NCBI GenBank assembly: GCA_030295235.1
Contig: AP026134.1
Location: forward strand, 248,001 to 312,000
Direction: 5' to 3'
DNA: 64,000 bases
Origin: Fistulifera solaris
Lineage: Eukaryota
Below the pieces are notes generated by a model that worked only from the letters and a program-made list of their open reading frames with translations, did not search any database and was not told where the DNA came from. Positions 2,058 through 60,102 of this stretch are shown here, in pieces. Position numbers and translations under genes: made by a program. The first letter of the stretch is position 1. The number at the start of each line of letters is the position of its first letter.

Positions 2058-3315
2058 TCATTCATTCGCCGTGTCAGCAAGGTTTCGAGAACTTTGCAAT
2101 TGCTGCAGCACTGCTTTGTTCTGGTAGATTTTTCGCGCGGCTCCCAAATCTTCCCAGAAGACCTAACAAAGCAACCAAACTTAGACAAACACACAAAAAA
2201 GTCAACGATGCCGATTCAGGAACGTACCTTCTTTTCGATCGGAAGCACTTCTTTCATTCGAAACATGAGCATACTTGAAATCCAAATTAATATAATGTTT
2301 GCAACTGTTATGCCTGTATAGAACGAACGGAAATTTGAGAAAGCATTCATCCGAAAACGTGATACCTGGTAAGAAGTGTATTTCACTGACCTATAGAAAT
2401 TCGACCCATCTGCCTGTAGTCATCGTAATCATAAACTTCACCATATCCTGGAATATTATTTCGAATTTCGGCTTCTTCTTCGGTAAGGACCAGGACATCC
2501 GAATGACGCGTAAAGATATAAGCGACCCAAATGATACCTGTGTTGACTGCTGGCGGCAACAAAGACGCGGAAATGGCCACTCCTACCAAGGAACTTGTGT
2601 TGTCATCGAGAAGAGATACTGCCACGCCCAAGCCGGAAAAGAACGCCACCGGACAGGCTACATAGAGATTGATTACATCACCTCGCGATTCCATTTCCGG
2701 CGTGGGCCAATCATCGGACAAACTCGTTGGACCCGTGACCAATCCAATCAGAGCACCCATGACAATGCAGATCACTAGCGAAGCGAACTCCACCACCATA
2801 GCTCGCTTCACCATGGCCCAATCACGAATGGTGGTTCCGTAGGCCAGTCCGATGACTGGGCCCATAATCGGCGACACCAACATGGACGCCAGTATCGTGG
2901 CGTTGCTGTTGGATACCAATCCGAGCCCCGCCAAAACGGAAGCCACCAATAGGAGGACATTGTAGTTGAAATTCATATAAAATCCTTCCTTAATTTTTTC
3001 GTGCACTGATGAAGTGTAATAGACGGAATTAGGAGCGGACAAAAAACAAATGGAACAGAATTAGATGACCGTCAGAAACAACGGAGTGCATTATGACTGA
3101 AACTACGAAATGAGAAACGTACTCTCTCGAACGCGGCTCACTTGCTCGGTTGAGAGCTCCGCCACTTCATTGTCATCCACAAATATTTTCACAATGTCAC
3201 GAAACTTGACGTTGCCCGTCAGGCTGCTCACTTGTTCTTTTACAGCTTCAATGTGATCACTGTGAATGGGTGCGACCAGTCCGGGTCGACTTGCTGCGGA
3301 TTCCGACACGCTCAT
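2058..3315 (-). CDS. DUF389-family multi-pass membrane protein, copy 1 (4 exons)
   Basis: ASMLVSPIMGP and LVGVAISASLLPPAVNTG motifs; GT-AG introns (e.g. 3006-3122); stop TGA at 2058-2060. Confidence 0.75.
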
Positions 3316-3868
3316 ATTCGTAGATATAATGCGTAACGCGGTCTGTGGCTTTCAAAAACACAGGAAGACTAACAACGGCTAAAACAAATCGGTTTTTTTG
3401 TTCGTCATAACATGCGCGATATGGATTTTGGAAACCAGTGATCGCCGAAGGCACTATCACCTTTGGAGTAGCACGTCTGCTTTGGAGAACTTGTGAAGAA
3501 CTAGAGCCCAATGCTCACTATCTGGAGAATAGTACGTGGTTGACACCATTGGTCAACTGGCCCAGAAATGTTGAACAACAAAAGAGAAACCACAACCAAC
3601 AGCCAGAGGGCAACATGCAACATTGTAAAGGAGACCGATTTGAAGTAAAACAATGTTCACCTTCTTCATGAAAACACGCGGTGAATGTCCGAGAAAAATA
3701 GAGAGATGAACGTTCAAACTATAAAGAATCACGTGTCAACGGTATGACACCTGTAACTTTCGCGTCAGTTGGTCTATCCGTTTTTCCAAGTATCTTCAGA
3801 CCAATATACATCTTCTCTAACCGATATCATTATCTAGTCGCAAAATTTGGTGATGTTGAATCTTTTTT

Positions 3869-18252: not shown

Positions 18253-18586
18253 CGTCTATTTTTACAAATGCAAGCTGCGTAAAATGAAATCGGCTTCCGA
18301 AGGTTTTCTCAGTCGGGACAAATTCCATCCGTGTTAGATGCAAAATGTGACCAGAAAAATGTTTCACAAGAGCTGTGAGTCCTGAGAAGCCAAGAGAATT
18401 TTCTATTCAACGCATGGCGTGCATCGCGCATCGCGGATGGGTCTTTAAAAAATATCAAGGAAAAAAATCGAATGTCTTACCGTTATTGCTAGTCGAGTAA
18501 AATTATGACGCTACAAGGGAGCTGGCTTTGGATGATGGAAAAGAGAGTGCAAGTACAGTACGGTACCGTACCATGCATGTAACGGA

Positions 18587-18665
18587 GGAACGGCGTTAAA
18601 ATTCTGCCTCGTCGTAGACGCTACGTAGAATCTTGTATTTGGAGGCAGAATTTTGACGTCCTTCC
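18587..18665. repeat. ~80-bp palindromic interspersed repeat, copy 1
   Basis: CGTTAAAATTCTGCCTC...GAGGCAGAATTTTGACG; near-identical to 57227-57388. Confidence 0.9.
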
Positions 18666-43644: not shown

Positions 43645-45608
43645 ATGAAGGAATCCATGCAAATCTTCGATAACGATCTGAGAGAAGACTCTCGGGAATG
43701 GAAGGCGACGAAAGCTTGTCTCATATCGCATCTTCCCCGCTATCGCGCTATCTGGCTGGCCTACGCGAACCGTGAAGAAGTGATGGAGGAGAATGTGGCG
43801 TACGAAGCCGATGATGAAATGGTGGTGTGTTGTGACAAACAGAATTGTTCTTGCAAAATATCGTCTTTTCTTCCTCAAGAGTTGTTGGAAATTAAAGTTA
43901 CCAATCAAGAGAGTTCAGATGCCCTGTCCGAGTCGGAATGGGACGAGGCATCGCAAGCTAGCGCGGCTGCAGAATCATCATCATCATCGAGTTCGGAGGA
44001 TACGGAATCGTCGGGAGCCAGCACGTGTGTGGCATTTGACGTGTCATTTCTTCCTTCACCGACTGGATCATCTCCTACGAATGACAATTTGTCACAATCG
44101 AGACCAACAAAAACTGACGTTCTGGAGCTACTGGATTCTACTAGCCTTAGTGACGATTGCAGCGACAAAGAAAATGCTTTCGCCGGCAATCCATTGAATC
44201 TTTCACAAAAACCAGAGATTATCGTTATCGACTCCGACGATGAACTTGAACCAGTTTTACAACCATCGAAGTATGTGCAAGGCGACAACGCACAGCAAGG
44301 CACCGAGCGAAGGGCTCATCATCAACAGTCTTCCTATGACAGCCGCTGCAGTGAGATCGAATACGAATCGCTGAAGAAAATGAATAAAAGATGGGGACCC
44401 AACGTCGCACACGCGTTGTAGTTGAATCTTCGGACGACGATAGTACTTCGTCATCGGCATTGAAACATTCGATTACCAGAAAGTCTATGGGGAAAAATCA
44501 ATTCATTATTGACAGCGATAATGAGGATGAGGATGATATCCGTCTAGATACTGAAGACGAAAGGCAAGCGAATAAGTTACTGGGAAAAATCAAGGCGTTG
44601 AGCATACGGAAGTCAAAGGAGAACGACGATACGTTCCGTAAAAAATCGCTTCGTAAAATGAAATATGATCTCGTCGATAGTGACGATGAAGGAGCAGATT
44701 CCTCGAGTAAAACTTCACACGAGGAGACCCGTCGAGACACCGTTCGGAAAGCAACGGAAACCAAAGTCCGCCGAAGGAAAGATTCGTTTATTGTCGATTC
44801 GGATGAGGAGGATCAGAGTGAAGACAGCGACGTATTCAGTTACGGTAATGACAAACCCTCATCTTTTGGTGTTCGACACGACAAAGATCGTAAACTGAAC
44901 AACCGCGATAAAATGACCAAATCTACTTTTCGTCGCACGCGGGAACAGTTAGCTCAGGAATTTTTCGTACAGTTCGATAAAAAGGTGTTTGATGGGAAAT
45001 TGTCGGCAGACACGAAGGTCGTCTGGTCAAACAAGCTGCGAACAACGGCTGGTTTAACTCGCCTGAAAGCACAGCGTCAGGGCAAAGAAATCATCGGTCG
45101 TTCTGCCGTGGTTGAGTTAAGCACAAAAGTGCTCGAAGATAGTCAACGACTTCGTGCGACGTTAATGCATGAGCTTTGTCACGCCGCCCAATGGTTGGAA
45201 GATGGCGTTTCGAAACCACCCCACGGTGAGGTCTTCAAGAAATGGGCGAGACTGGCAACGCGTCGGATGCCAGATATTCCTGTTACCGTCAAACACGACT
45301 ATGAGATCTCGTTCAAATATACCTGGAAGTGTGTGCAGTGCAATGGTTTGCTGAAACGACACAGTCGCAGTGTCGATGTTCAAAAGCACGTCTGCGGACG
45401 CTGCCGGGGTCGACTCGTCGAAGTAGAGGCCGATGGAACAAAGAAAGCGAGTGCTCCCGCGCGTCCCCCTTCCGCTTACAATCAGTTTATCAAAGACAAC
45501 TCCGCTAACGTTCGACGCGAGCTGGAGAAAAGGCAAACGGAGAAAGTCACGCAAGCGCAAGTCTTGAAGCATTGTGCTCGACTTTGGAAGGAACAAAGTC
45601 AGAGCTAA
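43645..45608 (+). CDS. SprT-like metalloprotease with acidic N-terminus and C-terminal HMG-box-like region (GCNA/ACRC-like); frameshift ~44390
   Basis: WSNKLRTTAG, TLMHELCHAA (HExxH), HGEVFKKW, CxxC..CGRC and SAYNQFIKDN. Confidence 0.85.
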
Positions 45609-45804: not shown

Positions 45805-46604
45805 TTAATCGACTCGTTGCTCCTCCATATCCGTGGCACGAACCGCCGTTCCTTTTAGGACATTGGCTTGGGTGACCGTGACGGTACCATCCGGATTGTG
45901 AGTTCGTTCGTAGGTCACTTCTTGGGTTTCCGGAGGCGGACGACGATCCCGCACGGGGGCACCGGAAATCAACATGGTCGCTCCCGCGAGGAACCACAAG
46001 ACAATCCCAAACACATTCGCCGTCGCGCCACTGTTCCACTGACAACTACCGTAATCACCTTCCCTGAAGATTGGCGAGTTGTTCGAGCACAATTCACTGC
46101 GGAGCATGAAAAACGTGAGTCCCTGAAAGAGCGGTAAAATCACCATATAAAGACCCGCGAGTTGGTTCCAACTTGTTTGGCTCAGTCGATGACAGAGTGA
46201 ACCAAATATCGCGGCGAGAATGGCAAATCCACCAATCAGGAGTGTGAGGCACCCAAACGCCCGGGCCGTCTTCCATTCCGCGTCATAATTTAGGTCGTCA
46301 TGATAAAAGCAACCCACTTTCGTGCGATAATTGTTGTTGGGGAATTCTTCGACATAATATTGTTTCTCCGTAAAGAGACTGAATTCTACCGTGGGTAAAC
46401 TGGAGTCGTTCATGGGCTTGATTTGCACTGATTCGCAATAAAATGTAAAGAGAGCGGAGCAACCAAATGCTGCCACCGCCAGTAGAATGGGGAAACTGAA
46501 CAAAAAAAGAAATTAGTGAAAGTAAGGAACGAATCCAGAACGCTTTATTGCTTTCGGATCGCATCACGATTGACTTACAATGTCTTGAAGACTGCCGAGA
46601 ACAT
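45805..46604 (-). CDS. Four-TM claudin-like membrane protein, copy 1 (1 intron)
   Basis: WKTARAFG, LFQGLTF and CQWNSG; short first exon followed by GTAAGT. Confidence 0.7.
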
Positions 46605-47053: not shown

Positions 47054-47831
47054 TCAATTGGACGGATGTTCCTCCGTGTCGGCGCCGGGGGCGGTTCCTT
47101 TCACAACATCCACTTCATTGACACCTCCGTTTTCCGTTTGCTCGTAGGTGACTTCATGCGTTGCAGCTGGCTTATTGGATGTCTCACGAACGGGCGCGCC
47201 CGCGAACAGCATGGCGGCACCCGCGAGGAACCAGAGGATAACACCACACACATTCGCCGTCGAGCCACTATTCCACTGACAGCCACCGTAATCACCTTCC
47301 ATAAAATCAAAGATTTGAGAATTTTCCGAGCAAAGTTCGCTTTGCAACATTAAAAAGGTCAGTCCTTGGAATAACGGTAGAATGACCAGATACAGCCCCG
47401 CCATGGCTTTCCACATCGAGTCACTGATGGGATAACAAAACGGCCCAAAGATCGATGCAATAATGGCCAGTCCACCGAGAACGATCGTCATGATGCCAAA
47501 CGCGCGGGCCGTTTTCCATTTCGAGTCGAACGGATAGTCTTCATCGAAGTAAAAGCAACCCGTCTTGACTTTGTAGTTGTTATCGGGGAACTCCTGAATG
47601 TAATATCGTTTGGTGGTGTAGAGACCGAATTCCACCGTCGGCAAACTCGCGTCGGTTATCGACTCGACTTGGACCGACTCGCAGAAAAAGGTAAAGAGAG
47701 CCGAACACGTGCAGGCGGCGACAGCGAAAATGGCCGGAAAACTACCACGGGGGTGAGCGAATAATCGAATGATACTGCACTTTGACTCGCGACAGCTCTC
47801 TCACTTACACTACCTTGGCGTCCGAACACAT
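47054..47831 (-). CDS. Four-TM claudin-like membrane protein, copy 2 (tandem paralog)
   Basis: High similarity to 45805-46604 with the same intron position. Confidence 0.7.
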
Positions 47832-48518
47832 GATTGTTCTATTTGTAGAATGGTAGATGGATGATTGACTTGCGTTTGTTTGCTTTTTTTATCTTGCTTC
47901 GTTGCTTCTTATTGTCATGAAAGGCATCGACGAGCGGCGAATAACCGCGAAAAGGAACAGTACAACCAGGTACTACGTACCAAAGGAGCACTTTTGCTTG
48001 TTCAGGGTACCTGGTACCCCCAAAATGGGTACCGGATACGACACTCTCACAAGCCAGTCTTCCCGTATTATGACCTAGACAGTAGGTGAAAAATTAGCCC
48101 CTAGAGCGTTGAAAAGTCCTTTACTCAACGGAACTTCGTCCGTTCAACCCCGGTCTCCCGTGACTTGATGGGGTACCTCGCCGAGAATAACACGAGGTAC
48201 CCCCGTTGAAAGTTGGAAATGTCAGCTCCCCCACTTTCACAAAGGTTATTGGCTTAGCGTGCGCCTTCCGAGGTGTCTGTTTTCTGCTTTCTGATTTAGT
48301 CCAGTCATTGGTCTTGACTTTGTAGAAGTGATGCAGTCGTTAACATCTTTTGAAAAATGCAAAAGTTATTACTTTCAGTTTACAAAGTACATTTGCTTCG
48401 AGTTGGTAACCAAAAATGTTTGCGTCTGTGCTGGATCATGAACCGGCGCACAACCATGGTAAAACTTGTACGCCGGCTTGTAAGCTGGTCAGTTTTTAGT
48501 CCAGTCTTGAGTGACTTA

Positions 48519-48852
48519 CCCAGATTTTCTGTAAGAATGAAAATACCCATTGTCCAGAATTTCTGACACACTCGCTTTTCTGCATGAATGATGTCCACTT
48601 GCTTCATAGTTCCTGGTGTACCCAGATATTCAGATTACAGCAGATACATAATTTCTGGACCAACCGAGATTTTCTGTATTACGGAGTAAGGAATTACGAC
48701 TGGTCCAGATTTTCTGGATCGCCCCAGATTTTCTGTATGAATGAAAATCACCTTCCGCCAATTTCTGTATCGCCCCATATTTCGCATATTTACGAAATAC
48801 AACTGGTCCGGAATACCTAAAATGCCCAGATTTAGAACGCTACGCCAGATTA
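48519..48852. repeat. Cluster of degenerate CCAGATTTTCTG(G) repeats
   Basis: Roughly 8-10 variant copies, including a ~30-bp near-duplicate at 48519 and 48723. Confidence 0.7.
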
Positions 48853-49040
48853 GGCACCGCCCTACCACCCATTCCGATGATGCTTACGCCGGCACACGAT
48901 CCTCTGTAATTTCAGTCCAGTCACAGCTTTCTGCATTTCGACGAGTCCCAAATGTCCTATCTACAAGTTTACATTGCATAAAATTTGGTACAATTCAAAT
49001 AATTCAACGAACTTGCTAAATCCTTATTGACTAATACCAT

Positions 49041-49495
49041 CTAAATTTCCGTTTCCCAACCTATCAACTCATTTTCCTGAATGGCTATCAATTTGCAGAC
49101 TACCGACCCCTTCTCTTCATCGTCCTTAAAATCTTTAGCATATTCACGCAACCTCTTTAGGTTCTGCTTTGCCATTTGTTCAGCAATGATGAGGTTTTTC
49201 CCAGCAATTTCATGTTTGGTCCCCTTTCTGGTCGCTTTAGGTGCTTCTTTGGAGTTATCCTTACGAAGTTGCGCATAGTTGACTTTTCTCTCATCACCCC
49301 ATTCCAATCCCGACTTTGGGACAATCCATTCCGCAAACTTGTCATCAATTGATCTAAGATGATCTCTGATTCGTTGACGTGCGCCTTAGTTCTGACCTTT
49401 AAAGTTTGAGAATCCTACATCCCTCCATTACTTCCACGAAAACCTTCTTGTCAACTTTTCTTATTTTAATGACTCCTTCCCAATCTATTGTCATT
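49041..49495 (-). pseudogene. Decayed paralog of cargo ORF 50526-51682
   Basis: GQN*GARQRIRDHLRS...WIVPKSGLEWGDE...AKQNLKRL aligns by eye with GPNAKNQRAQIRRHYRD...FVVPQSGLERGEK...ALQNLEKM; in-frame TAA present. Confidence 0.7.
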
Positions 49496-49589
49496 GTGGA
49501 TTCTAAAACATGGTATCATTCAATTGTTGCGCCAATTTTTGGAAGCCCGGTACTTGTAACGTATTCGAAAGGCCTGCTAGAGTGGTTCC

Positions 49590-50487
49590 ACCGGCTCATA
49601 CGCCGGCGTACAACCCAACCGGGTTACTTGTACGCCGGCGCATGCGCCGGTCCAACTTCCGTCCAGTCACGCCTAACGTGGTCAGCCTACGTTCATTAAG
49701 TGTCTGCTTGCAAGCTGGTACACCGCAATTTTTTTCCTCTAGCTTTGATCATTCGATTTCTGAATAGACAGTTATACTATTTGTGTTGCCACTACCCTCA
49801 AAGCGGGTTTCAGTTTCCTCCTCTAATTTTTCACGTTCTAGCACGCTTCAACCGGCTCATACTCCGGCGTACAACCCAACCGGGTTACTTGTACGCCGGC
49901 GCATGCGCCGGTCCAACTTCCGTCCAGTCACGCCTAAAGTGGTCAGCCTACGTTCATTAAGTGTCTGCTTGCAAGCTGGTACACCGCAATTTTTTCCCTC
50001 TAGCTTTGATCATTCGATTTCTGAATAGACAGTTATACTATTTGTGTTGCCACTACCCTCAAAGCGGGTTTCAGTTTCCTCCTCTAATTTTTCACGTTCT
50101 AGCACGCTTCAACCGGCTCATACTCCGGCGTACAACCCAACCGGGTTACTTGTACGCCGGCGCATGCGCCGGTCCAACTTCCGTCCAGTCACGCCTAAAG
50201 TGGTCAGCCTACGTTCATTAAGTGTCTGCTTGCAAGCTGGTACACCGCAATTTTTTCCCTCTAGCTTTGATCATTCGATTTCTGAATAGACAGTTATACT
50301 ATTTGTGTTGCCACTACCCTCAAAGCGGGTTTCAGTTTCCTCCTCTAATTTTTCACGTTCTAGCACGCTTCAACCGGCTCATACTCCGGCGTACAACCCA
50401 ACCGGGTTACTTGTACGCCGGCGCATGCGCCGGTCCAACTTCCGTCCAGTCACGCCTAACGTGGTCAGCCTACGTTCATTTAGTGTC
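49590..50487. repeat. 261-bp tandem repeat, ~3.4 near-identical units, each with a hairpin and a 16-bp palindrome
   Basis: Near-identical ORF-track entries start every 261 bp (49700, 49961, 50222); CCGGCGCATGCGCCGG in each unit. Confidence 0.97.
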
Positions 50488-50525
50488 GTTCAAAATAGTA
50501 TTATAATGGTTCGTTAGCCATGTCT

Positions 50526-51682
50526 TTAAAGTTGGTCATCTGCCATTTCCGCATTACCCTCATAAGATCCCCCGATCTTTGCCAGATCGGCCCATTGTCC
50601 CTCAATGCATTGTTCGAGTATCACTTTTCTGTTGTCCCCTTCCTCACACTCCGCTAGTTCCTTTTTCATCTTTTCCAAATTTTGAAGCGCAAGGTAAATA
50701 GACATAGTTACTGAGTGAAACAAATCATGATACACAGATGTCTCGGACTGAACCAAGTTCTTCAAATCCATTGCTGTAATAGGACCTTTTTCACCCCTCT
50801 CAAGACCCGATTGTGGCACAACAAACAATGGGTGGGTTCTGGCAATATCTCTGTAATGGCGCCGAATCTGTGCTCGCTGGTTCTTAGCATTAGGACCAGC
50901 CGGCAGATGCTTGTCGATGTCCACGAATCCGTACTTGTCTTCCTCCAACATTTTCGACGGATCAGTCTCATTTTCAAACTTGCCAACATTGAACGTCGTG
51001 TACTTTGCGGCCCACACCCCTTTAGAAATACACTCTGGGCATCGGCACAAGTAAATAGCCACATTCCCACTCACCCTCTTCAACAGCGGGTGGTTATTCT
51101 TAAAAAACTTAGCCGTGTTCTTAATGTCTCCTTTGTGATCAATTGTCTCAAGAAATTCTTCCGCCGACATTGCGTTGTCATTGGATTGCAGTTCCGCCAT
51201 AGCGTTGTCGATGATAAGTGCAATGCCTTTTTCCTGAACTTCTTCTTCAGCTGTGTCGATATTTGTGTAGCTGTCTCTGTCCGCAGCCGTGGTTTCCTTT
51301 TCGTTTTCGTTAGAATCAGCCAGCAAAGGCGGAGGCTGGGGACGACCTGTCGTGTCTTCCGTCGGGCTGCTGGCCATGTTGTTATTGTGAACGGAACGTG
51401 TTGGATTTCTCTTACCGTTCTCGTTTGTGCTTCTCGTTGTCTTTTTTCTTGTTTGCCGGTTTTGGCTCAACTGTCTTAGAAGCCATTATGTTTTGCTTTT
51501 CGGTTCTTGATTTTTCTTCATTAGATGCGTCGCCGTGGTTATTTCCCTGATTGGCTACCTGCGGAGTCGCACTAGCGTTGTTTTTCTTGCTCGTCGGCGT
51601 AATTTTTGCCTTTTTTTCGTGCTGGTTTTGCGGCATGTTTCTTGGAAGCAACCGCGGTTTGCGCCACGTTTCGTGTTTTCAT
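50526..51682 (-). CDS. Cargo protein of unknown function (basic N-terminus, CxCxxC motif); two A-run frameshifts in the 5' part
   Basis: ATG at 51682 (MKTRNVAQ...) joins ORFs 51412-51651 and 50526-51470 if one base is restored in each of two A-runs; LCRCPEC. Confidence 0.7.
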
Positions 51683-52399
51683 TATTTTTATAAGTTTATT
51701 AACTAATATCCGTACTGTGCATTACAATCATTTGCTATTGCTCATTATTGCCAAGTCTAGAGACATAATAGCGACGTTGTGTGTTGTGTGCGGCGGGCGT
51801 CGATGAACATATACGGCAGAAGGCCAGAGTATCCGGTCCCGTCACGACTGAAAACGGAGCATGATCCGGCGTACAACACTAGTGGCTAATCTGTACGCGA
51901 ATAACGTTCACCCGAATAACAGTTCTCCCATCTTCTGTCAGAAGACACACCTTGCTACAAAGATCGCAACCAAGAAATCGTCGTCCGTTGCGAGCATCAT
52001 CATTTTCAATGAATGCTTTCAACATGGCTTCATATTCTTGCGATTTTGCTGATCGATATTTGTTTAGAAACGGATTGTGTTACGAAGCTGTTGGAGAGGG
52101 GGCGAGAAAGGCTAGGAAGAGGTCGAATGAAATACAATTATTTCTTTCTGATTTGTCGGCACGCCCAAAGTAATTTGCTGCTCTTACCATTTTGCATTTT
52201 TCAACAACCAAGGGCCAATCCACGAGCGAATCGCCTATAAATGCTACTATTCATCACTGTGGGTCTTATCTGGCACAACGGTAGAAAGGAGTTATAGAGG
52301 AACATTCCAATGTTTGATGCAGTTTCCGGTAAGTGTCTTGATTGCGATTATATTGTTTTCCGATTCAGACGTTCATCGCTGACACTGTGGAACTCATCT

Positions 52400-53460
52400 C
52401 AATAAAGAATCATAATTACTACTTGCGTGAGGAAAGGTCCAAACCAAAAATATGTTCAAAATCGGTCGAGCAACTGCATTCTCTGTTGCGATTCCGTTGA
52501 GCGGAGTCGCGTCTCGGCAACAAGCATCGTCGCTAGCCCTATCCCGAAGAACAATTAGCCACCAAGTATTGATTACAGGCCACTTATACTCAGCGGATAA
52601 TGGTCCAGACTGGACCCACGGCGGAGCGCGGTTTCCGGAGAAGCTTTGCAAGTTGACTTGAGAGGTAACAGGTAAGTTCGTGGTGTTCGGACCGGAGACG
52701 GTTTTCTCATGTCAACTCGAGAAGCGACCCTAGTCTCGTGACAACAGACACTGCTCGACAATATGTTGTAAATTGGTCAATCTGCATCTAACTATTGTGA
52801 TTCTATTTCCAGTTTTGTGTTGCTTCGTGGTCATCGAGTCGACTGACACTATCACTCGATAATCGACTTCATCAGGGAATTTGCTACGTGCGCATGACAG
52901 TGATCGACGAACTTGTTCTCGTGGGATTTCGAAGCCCGCGCTGACGAAATCTCGTTAGGTAAGATAACAAAGACAATGTGTTGTAACTTGTGCACTCTGC
53001 TGTTACCCTTCCGATTCCATTGTCAGTTCAGTGTTGATCGGCGGCCCGTATTTTGCTTCGTAACGACAAATTGTGCTTGACGAACGAATCTCAATCCTTG
53101 TCATTTGGTATCCTAACAAGGTAAGATAACAATGGCATTCTATTGTGTTTGAAGCAAGCTGCATCTGCTCTTCGTCGTTCTGATTCTATTGTCAATACAG
53201 TTTTGCTCGGCGATCCGATGTCTTGCTCCTTGACGACAGATCACAATCGACGAACTTGTTCTCGTGCGATTCTCGATCCTTGTGTTTTCGTATCCTTATT
53301 AGGTAAGATAACAATGGCATTCTATTGTGTTTCGAGCGAGCTCCATCTAACGATTGTGATTCTATTTGAAGTTTCGTGTCCTACACGGTCATTGCGGCGG
53401 CGGCACGTATCACTCGTCAATCAACTCCCTGGGCGAATTTCCTGCGTGAGCATCAATATT
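52400..53460. repeat. Diverged copy of the 354-bp unit (~52400-52690) plus a mosaic of ~180-bp degenerate repeats (~52760-53460)
   Basis: CCACGGCG..G.GCGGT..CCGGAGAAGCTTTG shared with the 354-bp unit; AGGTAAGATAACAA x3; TCGACGAACTTGTTCTCGTG x2. Confidence 0.75.
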
Positions 53461-53569
53461 CTTGTTTGATATGATAAGGAGCGTAATGTCTGAAAAGTTG
53501 GTGAAGCTGCTCTGCGTCGTTCCGATTCTACCGTCAATTATGTTTTGCTGGGCGGTCCGATGTGTCGTG

Positions 53570-54362
53570 ACAACCAATATCTTCGCCCACCGCGGTCTAT
53601 ATAAGCCGCCCAATATAGATTACAGACGGTTTAGACTATGCCGTGAACCGTTGAAACTAAGTCCACGGCGAAGTGCGGTCACCGGAGAAGCTTTGGTAAG
53701 TCGTCTCGAGAAGGTGCAGGCAAGGTTCGTGATAGTCGGAAATGCATGGTATCAACAAATATTAAGTGCTCTAACCCTTTCGAATTCCACTGAATCGAAA
53801 GAGTGTATTACTAGCTGCGCTAGGAAAGATTCAAAACAGGAATCAGTTGAAATTTGGTCTAGCAAATGCATTTTCTGTTGAATTTCTGTCGCACGGCGTT
53901 CTTTTCGTAGCATCGCGGCAGCCAATATCTTTGCCCATCGCAGTCCATATACCTATATGCCGCCCAATATAGATTACAGACGGTTTAGACTACGCCGTGA
54001 ACCGTTGAAACTAAGTCCACGGCGAAGTGCGGTCACCGGAGAAGCTTTGGTAAGTCGTCTCGAGAAGGTGCAGGCAAGGTTCGTGATAGTCGGAAATGCA
54101 TGGTATCAACAAATATTAAGTGCTCTAACCCTTTCGAATTCCACTGAATCGAAAGAGTGTATTACTAGCTGCGCTAGGAAAGATTCAAAACAGGAATCAG
54201 TTGAAATTTGGTCTAGCAAATGCATTTTCTGTTGAATTTCTGTCACACGGCGTTCTTTTCGTAGCATCGCGGCAACCAATATCTTCGCCCATCGCAGTCC
54301 ATATACCTATATGCCGCCCAATATAGATTACAGACGGTTTAGACTACGCCGTGAACCGTTGA
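53570..54362. repeat. 354-bp tandem repeat, ~2.2 units
   Basis: GCCGCCCAATATAGATTACAGACGG at 53605, 53959 and 54313. Confidence 0.97.
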
Positions 54363-54570
54363 CTGGCTACTCAGTGAGATTTTCAAATTGACGATTCGTC
54401 AATAATTGGTAAGTGATACGATCACCGCACAAGCTGTTACGATTCTGTCTCCAGTTCTGTGTGTCTTGGCAGTCAGAACGGCGGGTTAATCCAACTACAT
54501 TTGTGTAATAAGGTAAGTTGCACGTAAGTTGGTTACTAATTAAATGCTCCAAGAGCCTGAGGAGTTGCCT

Positions 54571-56721
54571 TTATTTCTTGGCGCCACATATTTGCGATGC
54601 CTTTCCACTGCAGCAGTTGCCTCTGAAATGGATTTTGAAGTCTTTCCATTTCGCACAAAAAGAAGTAATGTCTCCTTGGTGGTGATTTCGAAAGCAATTC
54701 AGTGCAGGCTGGAGACAGGTATAGTAGAATTTCTTGGCGGAGGCCGTGAACTTGATAACAGGTTGCCCTTGTTCGTTGAGAAGGATAGATTGCTCGAGCT
54801 CAAGAAGCAGCATTACCTTGTCCTTGGTTTCATTTTGACTTTTGACAGCCAATCTACCAGGTAAGTCATTTTCTTCGGTGCGCTGTCTCTTGTTAGCCAG
54901 TTGGAGACTATGACCATCCAACGATCTTTTCATGTTTTTGACTGGCACAGAGAAGGAAAATGAATTTGAGTTAGAATCATGGTGATTACCATGAGCGATT
55001 GGGATCTCATTTTGGTTGCCATGGACGGACTTCAATCTCCTCTCAGCTTTGGCAGTTGCGTCTTCTGTGACGAATCGAATAAGCTGATGAAGATCCGGAA
55101 CAGCTCGATCAGGTAAAGTGGATGCAAAAGCTTTTACTTGCTGATCAACATCACTGCAGCGGGGCTTAAACTGACGGGCCATCTTCATCAGAAACGGAAC
55201 ATCTTTAGATCTCGGGTGATTAGGTCCAAGGTTCATGTCTTCTTCAACAAACATGACTGCTACATCATAGAGACTCTTACGATATAGGGGATTCTCATCA
55301 TTCAAGCGTGCCAAATTCTGGGGTTCCTCACAATGAATGTGGCGCCATTTGCTAACCATGTTTTCCTCGTTGATGTAATCCTTCGAAGTATATGCATCTT
55401 TGGCATATTTTACAGCCTGCTCGTCCGTTTCGTGTCGAGCATCTTGTCGAAGGCCTTGAGGTTTCGCGTCGCCCCAGATCGCTAAAAGGTAGGCAGTCTT
55501 GCGGAACATGTGTGTGCCGACTTTAAGGGCATTCTCACCAAATGGAACATACGTAAATAATGCCTGCGTGAAAAAGGTTTTGAAGGAACCATATTTCTCT
55601 TGGGATGTAAAGTTACCGTCGGAAGGAGGTTTCTTGAGATCATCTCTTACGGGAAACAGATTACCGGATTTGATACCGGCAACGTAGATGTACACCAAAA
55701 GCGCACGAATGGGGCACAACTCGGGGTATACGTGGTCAGCTTTCATGCACATGTAGGCCTTCTTCTTGTCAGTCTTTCCGATGACCCACAGACAAAGTGA
55801 ATCAACCGCACCGTCTGTCTTCTTAAAAAGATCGCTGTAGAAATTGTCATGGGAGATAGAAAGTAACTCGTCTGCACGAAGAAAGAGACGACAGCACATT
55901 ATTATCATGACCCAAAGAGAAAGACCATAGAGCCCAATGTCGCGACATTTGTTAGTAAGACCATCATAAAGTTTGCGCAAGTCCATAGGAAATAATTGCG
56001 AGCATCCCTTCACCTGATACGAAGGATCGTTAAGGCATTTCTTCGCGTTGGTCCACTTGTTATGTGTAGTCGGATTGCCTTCCCGACAAATTTGAGGTTT
56101 TTTGTAGTGGCGACGGCACCCGTCACTATCTCCACTAGTCATGCATTGTTCACAATAGTCTTTGTACTGAGCTTTGTCGTGGCCGCGTGCAATGTGGACC
56201 GCAGAAACGGCAGCAGCGAGCTGTTCGGCCTTCTGTGGTGATCCCCAGTCACCCGAGCAAAAGATTTTTTCGCCGTGGATGTCAGAGAGTATAACATCAG
56301 GATTAATAGTCTCGTCTGTATCATAAGGAATAAGGGTCAATGGTGTAGAAGGGTCACACCGCTTGTATCGTAAGAAAGCAACAAGACTCTCGACCTTAAT
56401 AGATGGGATGTGACTATTATCTGGGCTGAGATCTTTCACGAGCATCAGCATGGATTCGTAGTCACCAGTCCAAGCTAAGAAGCGCCATAACTGCCTGAGT
56501 ATATTAAGGTAAACCTTTGCTGTACTCGGTTTGATGTGCTGGCCATTAAATATTTCAAAACTCTTCGCATCGAAGTCGCACCAACGAGAATGATCAGGCA
56601 TGTCGATGTTTAAGAGATAGGCCTGGTTCTTAACACCTCTTTCAATCGCCGACTGGATAGGTGGAGGAAGCCGGCTCTTAACACAGATCCGGCTTTTCTG
56701 ATCTTCACTATCTGTCGACAT
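54571..56721 (-). CDS. Tyrosine recombinase (lambda-integrase superfamily), Crypton-like, 716 aa, intronless
   Basis: Catalytic set in order: R (LFLRADELL), K (GKTD), CPIRAL box, HxxR (THMFRKT), H (DARH), Y (AVKY); N-terminal STAKVY core-binding helix; CxxC..C..H motif. Confidence 0.9.
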   Translation of the reverse strand: MSTDSEDQKSRICVKSRLPPPIQSAIERGVKNQAYLLNIDMPDHSRWCDFDAKSFEIFNGQHIKPSTAKVYLNILRQLWRFLAWTGDYESMLMLVKDLSPDNSHIPSIKVESLVAFLRYKRCDPSTPLTLIPYDTDETINPDVILSDIHGEKIFCSGDWGSPQKAEQLAAAVSAVHIARGHDKAQYKDYCEQCMTSGDSDGCRRHYKKPQICREGNPTTHNKWTNAKKCLNDPSYQVKGCSQLFPMDLRKLYDGLTNKCRDIGLYGLSLWVMIIMCCRLFLRADELLSISHDNFYSDLFKKTDGAVDSLCLWVIGKTDKKKAYMCMKADHVYPELCPIRALLVYIYVAGIKSGNLFPVRDDLKKPPSDGNFTSQEKYGSFKTFFTQALFTYVPFGENALKVGTHMFRKTAYLLAIWGDAKPQGLRQDARHETDEQAVKYAKDAYTSKDYINEENMVSKWRHIHCEEPQNLARLNDENPLYRKSLYDVAVMFVEEDMNLGPNHPRSKDVPFLMKMARQFKPRCSDVDQQVKAFASTLPDRAVPDLHQLIRFVTEDATAKAERRLKSVHGNQNEIPIAHGNHHDSNSNSFSFSVPVKNMKRSLDGHSLQLANKRQRTEENDLPGRLAVKSQNETKDKVMLLLELEQSILLNEQGQPVIKFTASAKKFYYTCLQPALNCFRNHHQGDITSFCAKWKDFKIHFRGNCCSGKASQICGAKK

Positions 56722-56931
56722 TCGTATCTTCGGAATACTTTTAAAACAAATGAGGGAAGATGGTACGGAACTAAAAATAATGAGCGTACTGCGTGGGGTA
56801 GAAAAATGGAGGGACGAAAAAATAAGTGCGAAGGGGAGGGCGGAATTACTTGCAACGGACGCAATTGGGGAATAGTGTAGGAAGGCCGACTCTCAAGGGA
56901 ATGGCAATTAGGTGGTATCCTGGGTACCCGC

Positions 56932-56997
56932 AGGTACCCGCCTAAATACCAAACGAGGTACCCACCTAAATACCAAACGAGGTACCCACCTAAATAC
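56932..56997. repeat. 24-bp tandem repeat (AGGTACCCACCTAAATACCAAACG) x2.75 upstream of the recombinase
   Basis: Seen directly; a partial inverted copy lies at ~56907-56930. Confidence 0.95.
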
Positions 56998-57226
56998 TTC
57001 AAAGTTTTACCTTTTTCCCCCTAATAATAGAAGAGAAGGTATCTTTCACCAAGCTCAAGGATCTACTATCTACTTGATCTTTACGGCCTAAAAAGAAGCA
57101 GTTGGCAATGAGAACCCTACAACGCCAAGCGCAAGATTTCGTGATGATCGGAGTCGCGAATGTTCTTCATTCTCACAATGATACGAGGTGACACACTACT
57201 CTACGTATTTTGTGTAGCAAACGGGC

Positions 57227-57388
57227 AACGGCGTTAAAATTCTGCCTCGTCGTAGACGCTGCGTAGAATCTTGTACTGAGAGGCAGAATTTTAACGTCCT
57301 TCCCGGGGAACAGCGTTAAAATTCTGCCTCGTCGTAGACGCGACGTAGAATCTTGTACTGGGAGGCAGAATTTTAACGTCCTTCCCGG
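57227..57388. repeat. ~80-bp palindromic interspersed repeat, copies 2 and 3 in tandem (82-bp period)
   Basis: 17-bp arms CGTTAAAATTCTGCCTC / GAGGCAGAATTTTAACG in each copy. Confidence 0.92.
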
Positions 57389-57824
57389 ATGTTCTGTCTT
57401 ATGTTGGATGGTGCGTGTTGCATGGCAAATACTGTTTGAAGGATTTGTCGACGTCACATTGTCCTTCATGATTCATGTTTGAGGCGATGCCAGTCCCTAA
57501 ACCTCAACCCTCATTATCTCGTCAATCGTGCCTTTGCTAAGGCTTTGAGCGAGAGCGAGGAGCAGTGGAAACCTAAAAATTAACTGCTCATGTTTTTCAC
57601 CGGAAACCATAAGTATTGAGTTGTCCTTCGCTTTCAGCTATATACATGATTGACAATCCATGACTCTTATTTGCGTTGCTGTCGAATTCGATTATGTCTT
57701 CAAGCTTCGGGGTTCATTGCAAGTTTATAAAGCTAGATCTACTTTCAAGTTCTAACTAAAATGCACATCATGATTTCTACTATGCCTAATGCAGCAGAAA
57801 TCGATCCTCAATCTCAAATTTTGT

Positions 57825-58774
57825 CTAGGGCACGTCGCAATCACCTGTTTCTGCGGACGGTTCTGTCGCTTGATGCAAAAGTGCCATGTCTTCCTCGCTC
57901 AATTTAAACGAGAAAAGATCCATGTTTGACAGTATATGATCGATGTTGTTGCTTTTGGGTATAACGCCACCGATGAAGCTTCCCTCTTGTAAGGCTTGTT
58001 GCACAATGAACCTCAAGGAAATCTGCGCCCCGTGACGTTATACCGCTGGGCAATTTCGGTCACTAGTTTTCCCGTAGTCAAAGAGTCTTCGGGCTCGTAC
58101 TGGCAGGGTCCGCACAACGGACTGAACGACATGAAGGTAATGTTGTTGGCGCGACATTTTTCCATGACGCCATCGACATCTCCAGATCCCACATGATATT
58201 CCACTTGATTGATACTGGGCATGACCGTAGCGATCTCCAAAATATCGTCAATATGCTGAGCACAGTAATGACTGATACCGATCGATCGGGCTTTGCCGGT
58301 GTAATAAATCTCTTCCAGTGCTCTCCATTCTTCTTGCCGCATTTCTTTCGATGCTTTCGTTGCCTCCCAATCGGCCGGAAAATGTGTCATCAAGTGGTCG
58401 ACATATTCAATGTTGAGTTGAAACAGATTGTGATGATGCGCCGCCCTTACTTCATCAAAGGTCAAACCACCGGGGACTTTGGTCAAGACGAACAAATCGG
58501 ATCGATGGCCCGTATAGCAATCGTGAATTGCCCGGCTCACACCCACCTGATTTCCGTAGCCATAGGCTGTATCCACAAACGTCAACCCAGCTCGAAAGGC
58601 TTTGCACAAGGAATCGTACGCCATAGTATCATTGTATTGCCACGTTCCGGCTCCGACCAGAGGCATCCGTACCGCATGTCCGTGGACATCGGTACCGATC
58701 GATATGCGAGGGATTGCGGTATAATTGCTGCTCACTGGGATAGCGAGAGCAATGAAAGGGACCAGAGATTTCAT
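57825..58774 (-). CDS. Aldo/keto reductase with N-terminal signal-like peptide (frameshift ~58030)
   Basis: MPLVGAGTW, VDTAYGYGN, FVLTKV, YVDHLMTHFP, ARSIGISHY, NQVEYH and IPKS motifs. Confidence 0.9.
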
Positions 58775-59319: not shown

Positions 59320-60102
59320 TCATCCACATACGCGACAGAACAAACCACATCGGTCTTCTTCGGCACGAGGGCCGCCAGTTGTGATCAGCGGATCGTAATC
59401 GTACAACGCGGCACCTCCTTCTACTTCCTTGGGGAAACGGAAGACGAAAAGTGTCTTGCCGTTCTTGGTAATAACCTTGGGATATCCGTCGGGCATGGCG
59501 ACATTTTCGCCGTCAATGTTGATCAATTGGGACATGATGACGGAAATACCTCCACCCAGGTCGTCTTCGGTAGGCTGATCATCCTTGCCCTTGAGTTCCA
59601 CACCGACATCTATGTGCGTGGCATTACCGTCGGCGCACGGGTCACACCAATTCCAGTCGATGAGTTGAATAGCGAACTTGAAATCACCTTCCACGACTTC
59701 CAAAGTCTCGTTGGTGCTTGTGGTAATGGTTCCATTCTCCTTGAAGATGTAGGTTTCCACTTTGATGGTACCGGCGCTGTAGACGTCGGCGTCAAAACTC
59801 AAGTAATCGGCGGTGAGATTGGAGAAGACCACTTCTTGAATGTTCGAGTACGTGAATCTCTGGTTGGCAAAGGTCTCGGTACTGTGCTTTTGTTGGGGAG
59901 AGCCCGCTTTCCCGACCACCTTATCGTTCTCATCGAGCTCGTGCAAGTAGTCCATGGTCATGGTGACGCGGTCCGGATCACTCTTACCGAGAGCCGCATC
60001 GTAGATCATAATCTTACCACTTTGGCCGAGAACATCGACTTCAATTTCGGCGCTCACCAAAGCGGCCAAGAGTGTGGAAAGGAGACCGTAGCGGAGAAGC
60101 AT
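59320..60102 (-). CDS. Secreted acidic hypothetical protein
   Basis: Signal peptide MLLRYGLLSTLLAALVSA; GC3-rich codons; C-terminal YDYDP. Confidence 0.75.
   Translation of the reverse strand: MLLRYGLLSTLLAALVSAEIEVDVLGQSGKIMIYDAALGKSDPDRVTMTMDYLHELDENDKVVGKAGSPQQKHSTETFANQRFTYSNIQEVVFSNLTADYLSFDADVYSAGTIKVETYIFKENGTITTSTNETLEVVEGDFKFAIQLIDWNWCDPCADGNATHIDVGVELKGKDDQPTEDDLGGGISVIMSQLINIDGENVAMPDGYPKVITKNGKTLFVFRFPKEVEGGAALYDYDPLITTGGPRAEEDRCGLFCRVCG

Follow-up and report, generated by a model that had tools for sequence, protein, structure and literature searches.

Cryptons are among the least understood eukaryotic transposons, with ends that are hard to define and recombination sites that are unknown, and the CryptonS group is on record from a single diatom, Phaeodactylum tricornutum, as well as from oomycetes, with low copy numbers and terminal direct repeats of 5–6 bp (available text of Kojima and Jurka 2011, PMC3212892). 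Here we analyze a tyrosine recombinase gene, and the island of ~8.8–9.8 kb that it borders, in Fistulifera solaris, an allodiploid diatom for which 9007 pairs of homoeologous genes have been described, along with 2441 genes that only one member of a chromosome pair carries (PMC5935921, available text). Long-read assemblies exist for F. solaris and for F. pelliculosa (10.1101/2021.11.10.468027, available text). In a 64-kb window (contig AP026134.1, positions 248,001 to 312,000; GC ~0.46, eukaryotic in character), the island occupies the whole space from one host gene to the next, and all coordinates are those of the window. In our estimation there is an even chance that it is a Crypton-like element, moving now or formerly by its tyrosine recombinase alone, with two motif clusters that mark its present ends.

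Compared by description rather than by sequence (the sequence link to Cryptons being an indirect one, through matches to NDC10_II in nine of 57 aligned members of the recombinase family), the island resembles CryptonS elements in its stramenopile host, its recombinase as sole enzyme, the absence of GCR1_C and of long terminal repeats, a conserved C-terminal region and an apparently low copy number, and its one passenger gene has a parallel in the extra open reading frame (ORF) of some Cryptons. However, the candidate ends lack the TATGG termini of the majority of CryptonS, the direct repeat proposed for the termini has 11 bp instead of 5–6 bp, and neither motif arrays nor ~6 kb of passenger DNA are described in the available text of PMC3212892. 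There is also a likeness to CryptonF and Ndc10, with weak NDC10_II matches in the family and Ndc10 among the structural matches, although the window protein itself reaches no Pfam model and Cre and Xer match its predicted structure far better than Ndc10 does. With Cre/loxP of phage P1 and FLP/FRT of the yeast 2-micron plasmid it shares the two-domain fold, and the site at the left edge is likewise built of inverted arms around a spacer, but the arms are separated by 12 nt and not by 8, the protein has twice the length and bears a Cys/His-rich insert and a C-terminal extension of 260 residues, and the sites lie in arrays.

Starships are fungal elements, tens to hundreds of kb in size, whose captain recombinase is of DUF3435 type. 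An analogy to them had been drawn in a first-pass annotation made from the letters of the window, and it holds for the layout, in which a recombinase gene at one end reads inward with unrelated passenger DNA behind it, but not for the remainder, as no Pfam model is matched by the recombinase at E≤0.1, the host is not a fungus but a diatom, and the island is 9 kb long with one passenger gene. DIRS, Ngaro and VIPER elements differ in that the island has no reverse transcriptase or RNase H: among 64 stop-to-stop ORFs of at least 60 aa between 47.9 and 57.7 kb, none matches reverse transcriptase, RNase H, DDE transposase or capsid families, and the sole family match is a sub-threshold one to Fer4_16. 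No enzyme-like gene other than the recombinase is present in the island. These results bear out the first-pass statement that neither reverse transcriptase nor DDE transposase is visible, and its companion statement on long terminal inverted repeats also stands, with none of 21 inverted-repeat pairs connecting the island ends.

The recombinase and its family

The 716-aa ORF is uninterrupted, as had been reported, and its exact protein is missing from the protein collection searched (no 100% match), so the gene is apparently unannotated in this form. PDB sequence searches with the protein and with a family profile returned only chance-level matches (ribosomal eL18, E 0.008; Bcl-2 A1, E 0.014). 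An AlphaFold model built on the family alignment (pLDDT 86.7, pTM 0.72) has Cre as its top Foldseek match (E 1.9e-6, probability 1.0), followed by XerH, the lambda and Tn1549 integrases, and then Ndc10 (4aco, E 6e-4). VIA-align superimposes model residues 54–451 on Tre/Cre with a Z score of 17.9 and a root-mean-square deviation of 3.6 Å, aligning 292 of 320 Tre/Cre residues, and gives a Z score of 11.2 with FLP. The Cre-like part, residues 54–451, comprises the core-binding and catalytic domains and a Cys/His-rich insert; residues 460–716 make up a helical extension and a conserved Cys-bearing C-terminal region. Ten positions are invariant in the 57-member alignment (C190, C193, C202, G215, R282, G315, K316, F356, H430 and Y439) and seven others are conserved in at least 90% of members (H176, H205, H404, R407, R429, C676 and C704). 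The R-K-HxxR-H-Y set noted in the first pass corresponds to R282-K316-H404xxR407-H430-Y439 and is kept across the 57 relatives, with catalytic roles assigned from motif order and spacing rather than from residue-level superposition. The spacing of 9 between H430 and Y439 is as in Xer-type enzymes. A tyrosine recombinase fold, on which the first-pass reading had been made to depend, was thus looked for by Foldseek and the two-domain Cre fold was found; from the predicted fold together with the conserved catalytic residues, the protein is a two-domain Cre-type tyrosine recombinase.

Two further features of the protein are a group of conserved residues between the two recombinase domains (H176, C190, C193, C202 and H205, in an insert at ~150–240) and a second conserved Cys-bearing region at the C-terminus (C676 and C704, at ~620–716), both of which may be metal-binding modules absent from Cre. 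An antisense GT..AG joint at 55483/55572 is weakly represented (one contig, depth 4.5, side 20) and was not used.

An exhaustive search identified 1004 representatives of 50%-identity clusters at E≤1e-3, 158 of them at E≤1e-30, which by sequence form a large family without a Pfam model of its own; a homology search with the family profile returned five proteins. The best full-length relatives are 32–37% identical to the window protein, and one 302-aa fragment is 53% identical. The NDC10_II matches in the 57 aligned members are weak (best E 1.4e-6), Phage_integrase is matched by two of the 57, and 40 longer relatives yielded one weak NDC10_II match and no added domain. For the 57 members, 25 of 29 families were listed and GCR1_C is absent from these; it gives no match at E≤0.001 in the 40 longer relatives either. 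We note that Cbf2/Ndc10 is itself derived from CryptonF elements according to the available text of Kojima and Jurka 2011 (PMC3212892).

In metagenome contigs we located 34 related loci, and these have the character of a mobile family. Uninterrupted ORFs of 664–911 aa are present in six (L006, L008, L010, L011, L016 and L019), while recombinase matches in 12 of the 34 are split over two or three frames and L001 and L003 have in-frame TAG or TGA stops, some of which frame breaks could be assembly errors. Where contigs are longer, the neighbours are ordinary eukaryotic genes that vary by locus (peroxin-3, a YTH protein, adaptin, an S1/P1 nuclease, an ABC1 kinase). Two loci contain head-to-tail copies: in L019, 18–1131 is repeated at 2616–3730 with 99.6% identity and a period of 2598 bp, and in L017, 1–300 is repeated at 2453–2753 with 93.7% identity and a period of 2452 bp. 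Because of these decayed, head-to-tail and non-syntenic copies, the sequences fit a compact, tyrosine-recombinase-only, Crypton-like mobile element, and the Crypton-like reading of the first pass is well supported for the gene and its family. There are two additional observations on individual loci. Directly downstream of a truncated recombinase relative in L018 (1534–2011) there are ~6 copies of a 75-bp tandem repeat with 97–98% identity, an array that recalls those beside the recombinase gene of the window. In L029 (1645–5892) a recombinase fragment adjoins a 1416-aa ORF with an endonuclease/exonuclease/phosphatase domain, which may belong to a non-LTR retrotransposon.

The same data bear on two other interpretations. 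The first is that the recombinase is a resident and possibly domesticated host gene, with the arrays acting as promoter elements and nothing mobile any more. Crypton-derived host genes are well documented (PMC3212892, available text), a single copy of the gene is seen in contigs of a DNA-like run (X1), and the arrays are at promoter distance. However, the full catalytic set is retained, whereas domesticated Crypton genes, as described in that text, have mostly lost theirs, and the variation in neighbours among related loci, together with the many broken copies, further separates this locus from domesticated genes of the DUF3504 and Ndc10 types. Nor are there close relatives, at the full-length identities given above, and no homoeolog pair is on record for the recombinase because the protein is missing from the collection. 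We consider a resident host gene improbable.

A second interpretation is that the family represents an episome- or plasmid-like replicon of ~2.5 kb that sometimes integrates, and that the locus is an integrated, rearranged copy. Small circular diatom plasmids with recombinase-like ORFs are known. The head-to-tail redundancy of L019 and L017 is as expected of such a replicon, many relatives are on contigs of 2.4–3.7 kb (ten close ones on contigs of 1.8–3.7 kb), and the upstream arrays resemble iterons. But several relatives are within longer contigs among the eukaryotic genes noted above, the L017 repeat, at 93.7% identity, is more in keeping with a tandem array than with a circle, no replication gene is present among the island ORFs or in the Pfam matches of the relatives, and no recombinase relative was found in viral contigs. 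A replicon of this type is very improbable as an account of the locus.

Motif clusters at the island edges and in related loci

The motif GGTACCC is present 17 times in the window compared with 2.94 expected (none of 100 shuffles reaches 17), and ten of the 17 are in clusters at the two edges of the island, five at 48005–48202 and five at 56922–56987. The borders proposed in the first pass, 48098 and 57023, adjoin these clusters. Part A of the left-edge cluster precedes the 5′ end of the adjacent host gene by ~100–200 bp, and part B is 6.4 kb beyond the recombinase stop codon with an inverted repeat that, by analogy, is shaped like a recombinase core site (Table 1). At the right edge the copies are direct repeats 200–280 bp upstream of the recombinase start codon, with the 24-bp units at 56932–56997. 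No long repeat connects the island ends, and the longest word common to both edges is the 11-mer ACGAGGTACCC, found in direct orientation at 48192–48202 and at 56953/56977. Four exact copies of the 10-mer CGAGGTACCC are present in the window, and each of them falls within an edge cluster; at up to one mismatch there are six matches compared with 1.85 expected, and two of 100 shuffles reach six.

If the Crypton-like reading is correct, the recombinase would bind the GGTACC motifs and pair the two edge clusters, with strand exchange taking place within the shared ACGAGGTACCC, at 48192 on the left and either 56953 or 56977 on the right, and a circle of 8761 or 8785 bp would be released. As has been suggested for Cryptons, the circle could then integrate again at a site of similar sequence, and the interior DNA would be a passenger that was acquired, or that grew by local duplication, inside a once-compact element of ~2.5–3 kb. 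This copy appears to be the only one in the genome, and it may be active only rarely or not at all.

Comparable arrays of short repeats are found upstream of the gene in relatives. An 8-mer is present at least three times upstream in eight of 16 sources with at least 300 bp of upstream sequence (the window and 15 loci), as against two of 43 coding chunks and three of 16 downstream stretches, two of these three being the next tandem unit in L019 and the 75-bp satellite in L018. About six of the eight array-bearing sources are independent, since L001 and L021, and L004 and L005, are related pairs. The motif itself varies with lineage (TTAGGAGTA, TTGCACCAC, GGGGCACCA, AACTGCAC and TAAAGTTCG), and neither of the two site motifs of the window is found in any of the 34 related loci; lineage-specific motifs fit element-specific binding sites better than the site of a host factor. 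In L001, 18 of 19 motif copies (at up to one mismatch) are concentrated in the ~450 bp that precede the gene and include an inverted junction, and L013, a compact copy, has its motif on both sides, with four copies upstream and two ~380 bp after the stop codon. We also observe that the 18 copies of TTAGGAGTA at L001 4400–4847 form three blocks, one of them in the opposite orientation and making a palindromic junction with the next, and this array may constitute an entire recombination site or else a miniature copy with an internal deletion, beside a full-length one.

That the 9 kb form one cargo-carrying unit is suggested by the paired motif clusters, the analogous arrangement in L013 and the orphan status of the passenger gene. 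Several observations weigh against it. Related copies are compact, with at most ~3.7 kb between neighbouring ORFs (the L001 copy), the next ORF ~180 bp past the stop in L003, and head-to-tail units of ~2.5–2.6 kb, and a relative of the passenger gene is present in none of the 34 loci. A motif cluster at the far end is not the rule, as repeats are only upstream of the gene in four of five independent motif-bearing relatives (L001/L021, L003, L004/L005 and L019), counting L004, whose contig has no downstream sequence, and L019, whose downstream copies are those of the next unit. No TATGG or CCATA is present in 47800–48400, 54300–54600 or 56700–57200, and TATGG termini are found in most CryptonS. 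Both clusters could be promoter elements, being a few hundred bp upstream of minus-strand genes, and the passenger segment has an inverted-repeat site type of its own and evolves by local tandem duplication. Lastly, the DNA-like run X1, which may be the window's own sample and whose summed contig depth is not a copy number, covers every bin, with one contig (54333–56970) free of differences over the recombinase gene among the pieces listed, and its contigs contain no credible joint across the island. A joint of 48745 to 57302 was considered as an empty site and dismissed as an artefact, as it starts and ends in two repeat families with 20 letters on one side. Contigs of runs X2–X4 (cover of 0 to 3.1 over the recombinase gene and none over 47.9–50.4 or 51.7–54.9 kb) were not used as evidence.

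An alternative is that only the recombinase gene and its upstream array (~54.4–57.0 kb, ~2.6 kb) constitute the element, as in its relatives, and that it inserted beside an unrelated, already repeat-rich stretch with a young orphan gene. The left-edge cluster would then be left over from a previous insertion or excision event, or be a pseudo-site resembling a target, or else act as a promoter element for the host gene that it closely precedes. The compactness of the relatives and their lack of a passenger, the placement of repeats upstream of the gene only in most of them, and the different site type and separate duplication history of the passenger segment are all in keeping with this. It does not readily account for an exact 10–11-mer at two single-copy places 8.7 kb apart, with four copies compared with ~0.1 expected from the window length. 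Moreover, a profile search of the six-frame window recovers no second, decayed recombinase copy (next best E 0.95), and there is no copy of the GGTACCC motif just past the recombinase stop codon. We regard the compact element as possible but doubtful, and of the cargo-bearing element proposed in the first pass, the recombinase, its standing as sole enzyme and the motif-marked edges hold, while the 9 kb as one unit is called into question by the compact relatives and the passenger's absence from all 34 loci.

Passenger gene, repeats and flanking sequences

The interior gene had been described as an unknown ORF; it is indeed a real ORF without relatives, but it is already annotated. The window ORF at 50526–51377 (minus strand, 283 aa) is 100% identical to the 384-aa hypothetical protein FisN_22Lu083 of Fistulifera solaris, and reads as 283 rather than 384 aa because two homopolymers in the window, at 51442 and 51611, each contain a surplus T relative to the contigs and the deposited protein. 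Contigs of three runs cover 50484–51648 and end in poly(T) at 50484–50486, which we read as polyadenylated RNA of the orphan gene, the runs being only guessed as RNA. Among 5.8 billion clusters FisN_22Lu083 has no homologue but itself, and it has no Pfam match; an Atlas search with the protein gave no usable lead (best feature score 0.78, own model pLDDT 0.39). Its locus tag carries a 'u', and the homoeolog of a flanking gene (59320–60102) is tagged 'Hh'; by our own reading of the tags, the 'u' denotes an unpaired gene. A decayed paralog had also been reported in the island, and the relic exists, but it derives from the orphan ORF and not from the recombinase (Table 1).

The repeat arrays seen in the first pass are real (261 bp ×3.5, 354 bp ×2.3 and 24 bp ×2.8). 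The second site type has 12 matches at up to one mismatch in the window compared with 0.76 expected, and 11 of them are within 48443–51876. At 48701/48746 there are many different contig continuations, with a summed depth of 118 in the 48572–49205 bin, and the stretch rich in CCAGAWTTTCTG-like units appears to belong to a dispersed repeat family found elsewhere in the genome. No coding signal was recognized in 52400–54362. Between 52400 and 54540, on the plus strand, there are repeated short units that each end in GGTAAG, resembling a 5′ splice site, and these could be duplicated leader exons of a gene not covered by contigs of the three RNA-like runs.

Table 1. Coordinates of island and flanking features in the window
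Feature	Position	Strand	Remarks
Small membrane-protein gene, left flank			Contigs reach 47741, then letters matching ~47809-47838
Left-edge cluster A	48005-48033		Three GGTACC(C) in 29 bp, including near-palindrome GGGTACC-T-GGTACCC
Left-edge cluster B	48170-48203		Perfect 11-bp inverted repeat, GGGGTACCTCG - 12 nt - CGAGGTACCCC
Second site type	48443-48476		Inverted repeat CCGGCGCACAA - 12 nt - TTGTACGCCGG
Stretch rich in CCAGAWTTTCTG-like units	48519-48850		Within the island
Relic of orphan gene	49044-49385	-	36% identity over 39 aa, pairwise E 3e-6; tblastn E 0.002
Tandem array, 261 bp ×3.5, 99% alike	49586-50487		Ends exactly at orphan gene poly(A) site; each unit with inverted repeat CCGGCGTACAA - 14 nt - TTGTACGCCGG
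Orphan passenger gene FisN_22Lu083	50526-51682	-	384 aa, Lys-rich N-terminus
Degenerate inverted repeat of second type	51855-51899		~170-220 bp upstream of orphan gene start codon
Nested old and young tandem duplications	52400-54362		Including 354 bp ×2.3 at 53571-54362
Tyrosine recombinase gene	54571-56721	-	Intact 716-aa ORF; at right end of island, reads inward
Right-edge array	56922-57003		GGGTACCC palindrome, one AGGTACCC, 24 bp ×2.8 units each with (C)GAGGTACCC
Aldo-keto reductase gene, right flank			Contigs stop in poly(T) run at 57740

There are no tRNA genes in 40–64 kb and no Rfam family in 47–58.5 kb. To the left of the island, 45805–46413 and 47054–47700 are two tandem paralogous genes for small membrane proteins (MARVEL match weak, E 0.011), and both are overlain by heavily covered contigs of 90–95% identity that probably represent the homoeologous copy. 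To the right, just outside the island at 57222–57388, an 82-bp unit with 25-nt inverted arms is present twice in tandem, with a single copy at 18581–18665 (92–94% identity). The summed contig depth of its bin in the DNA-like run is ~2590, with 42–45 contigs carrying variant letters, and the unit looks like a very abundant dispersed repeat resembling a miniature inverted-repeat transposable element. Single-base differences between window and contigs are at 44385, 51442, 51611, 51958, 58027–58028 and 62012; those at 51442 and 51611 are in T runs, read against the sequence, and look like homopolymer assembly errors.

Implications for Crypton biology

Cryptons in diatoms are already in print, and what appears to be new here are the arrays of short motifs, an 11-bp sequence as candidate crossover site, units of 2.5 kb repeated head to tail, and a possible passenger; literature searches, mostly judged short of full text, returned nothing on cargo-bearing diatom recombinase elements or Crypton repeat arrays. 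The locus and its relatives provide testable candidates for Crypton sites, in the form of lineage-specific upstream arrays and, here, an 11-bp repeat at both edges. Should the island not be mobile, a useful annotation remains, that of an intact, conserved gene with no Pfam match that is missing from the protein collection.

A more ambitious version of the Crypton-like reading is that the ACGAGGTACCC sites delimit a working, cargo-mobilizing Crypton of 8.8 kb, with a Cre-like recombinase that recognizes arrays with a GTAC core, excises a circle and has carried an expressed orphan gene into one subgenome. We think this rather unlikely, but if true it would point to a large undescribed group of small recombinase elements in marine protists, with lineage-specific iteron arrays and 2.5-kb head-to-tail multiplication, to a cargo-mobilizing tyrosine recombinase element outside of fungi, and to a natural pair of recombinase and site for diatom genome engineering. 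Genetic tools for F. solaris are described as limited (PMC13276009, available text), and a recombinase native to diatoms, given a defined site, could be of use in engineering the genome of this organism. If the island does move as a unit, then a recombinase-only element can carry genes in a diatom, and this would explain at least one of the 2441 F. solaris genes described as being on only one homoeologous chromosome (PMC5935921, available text).

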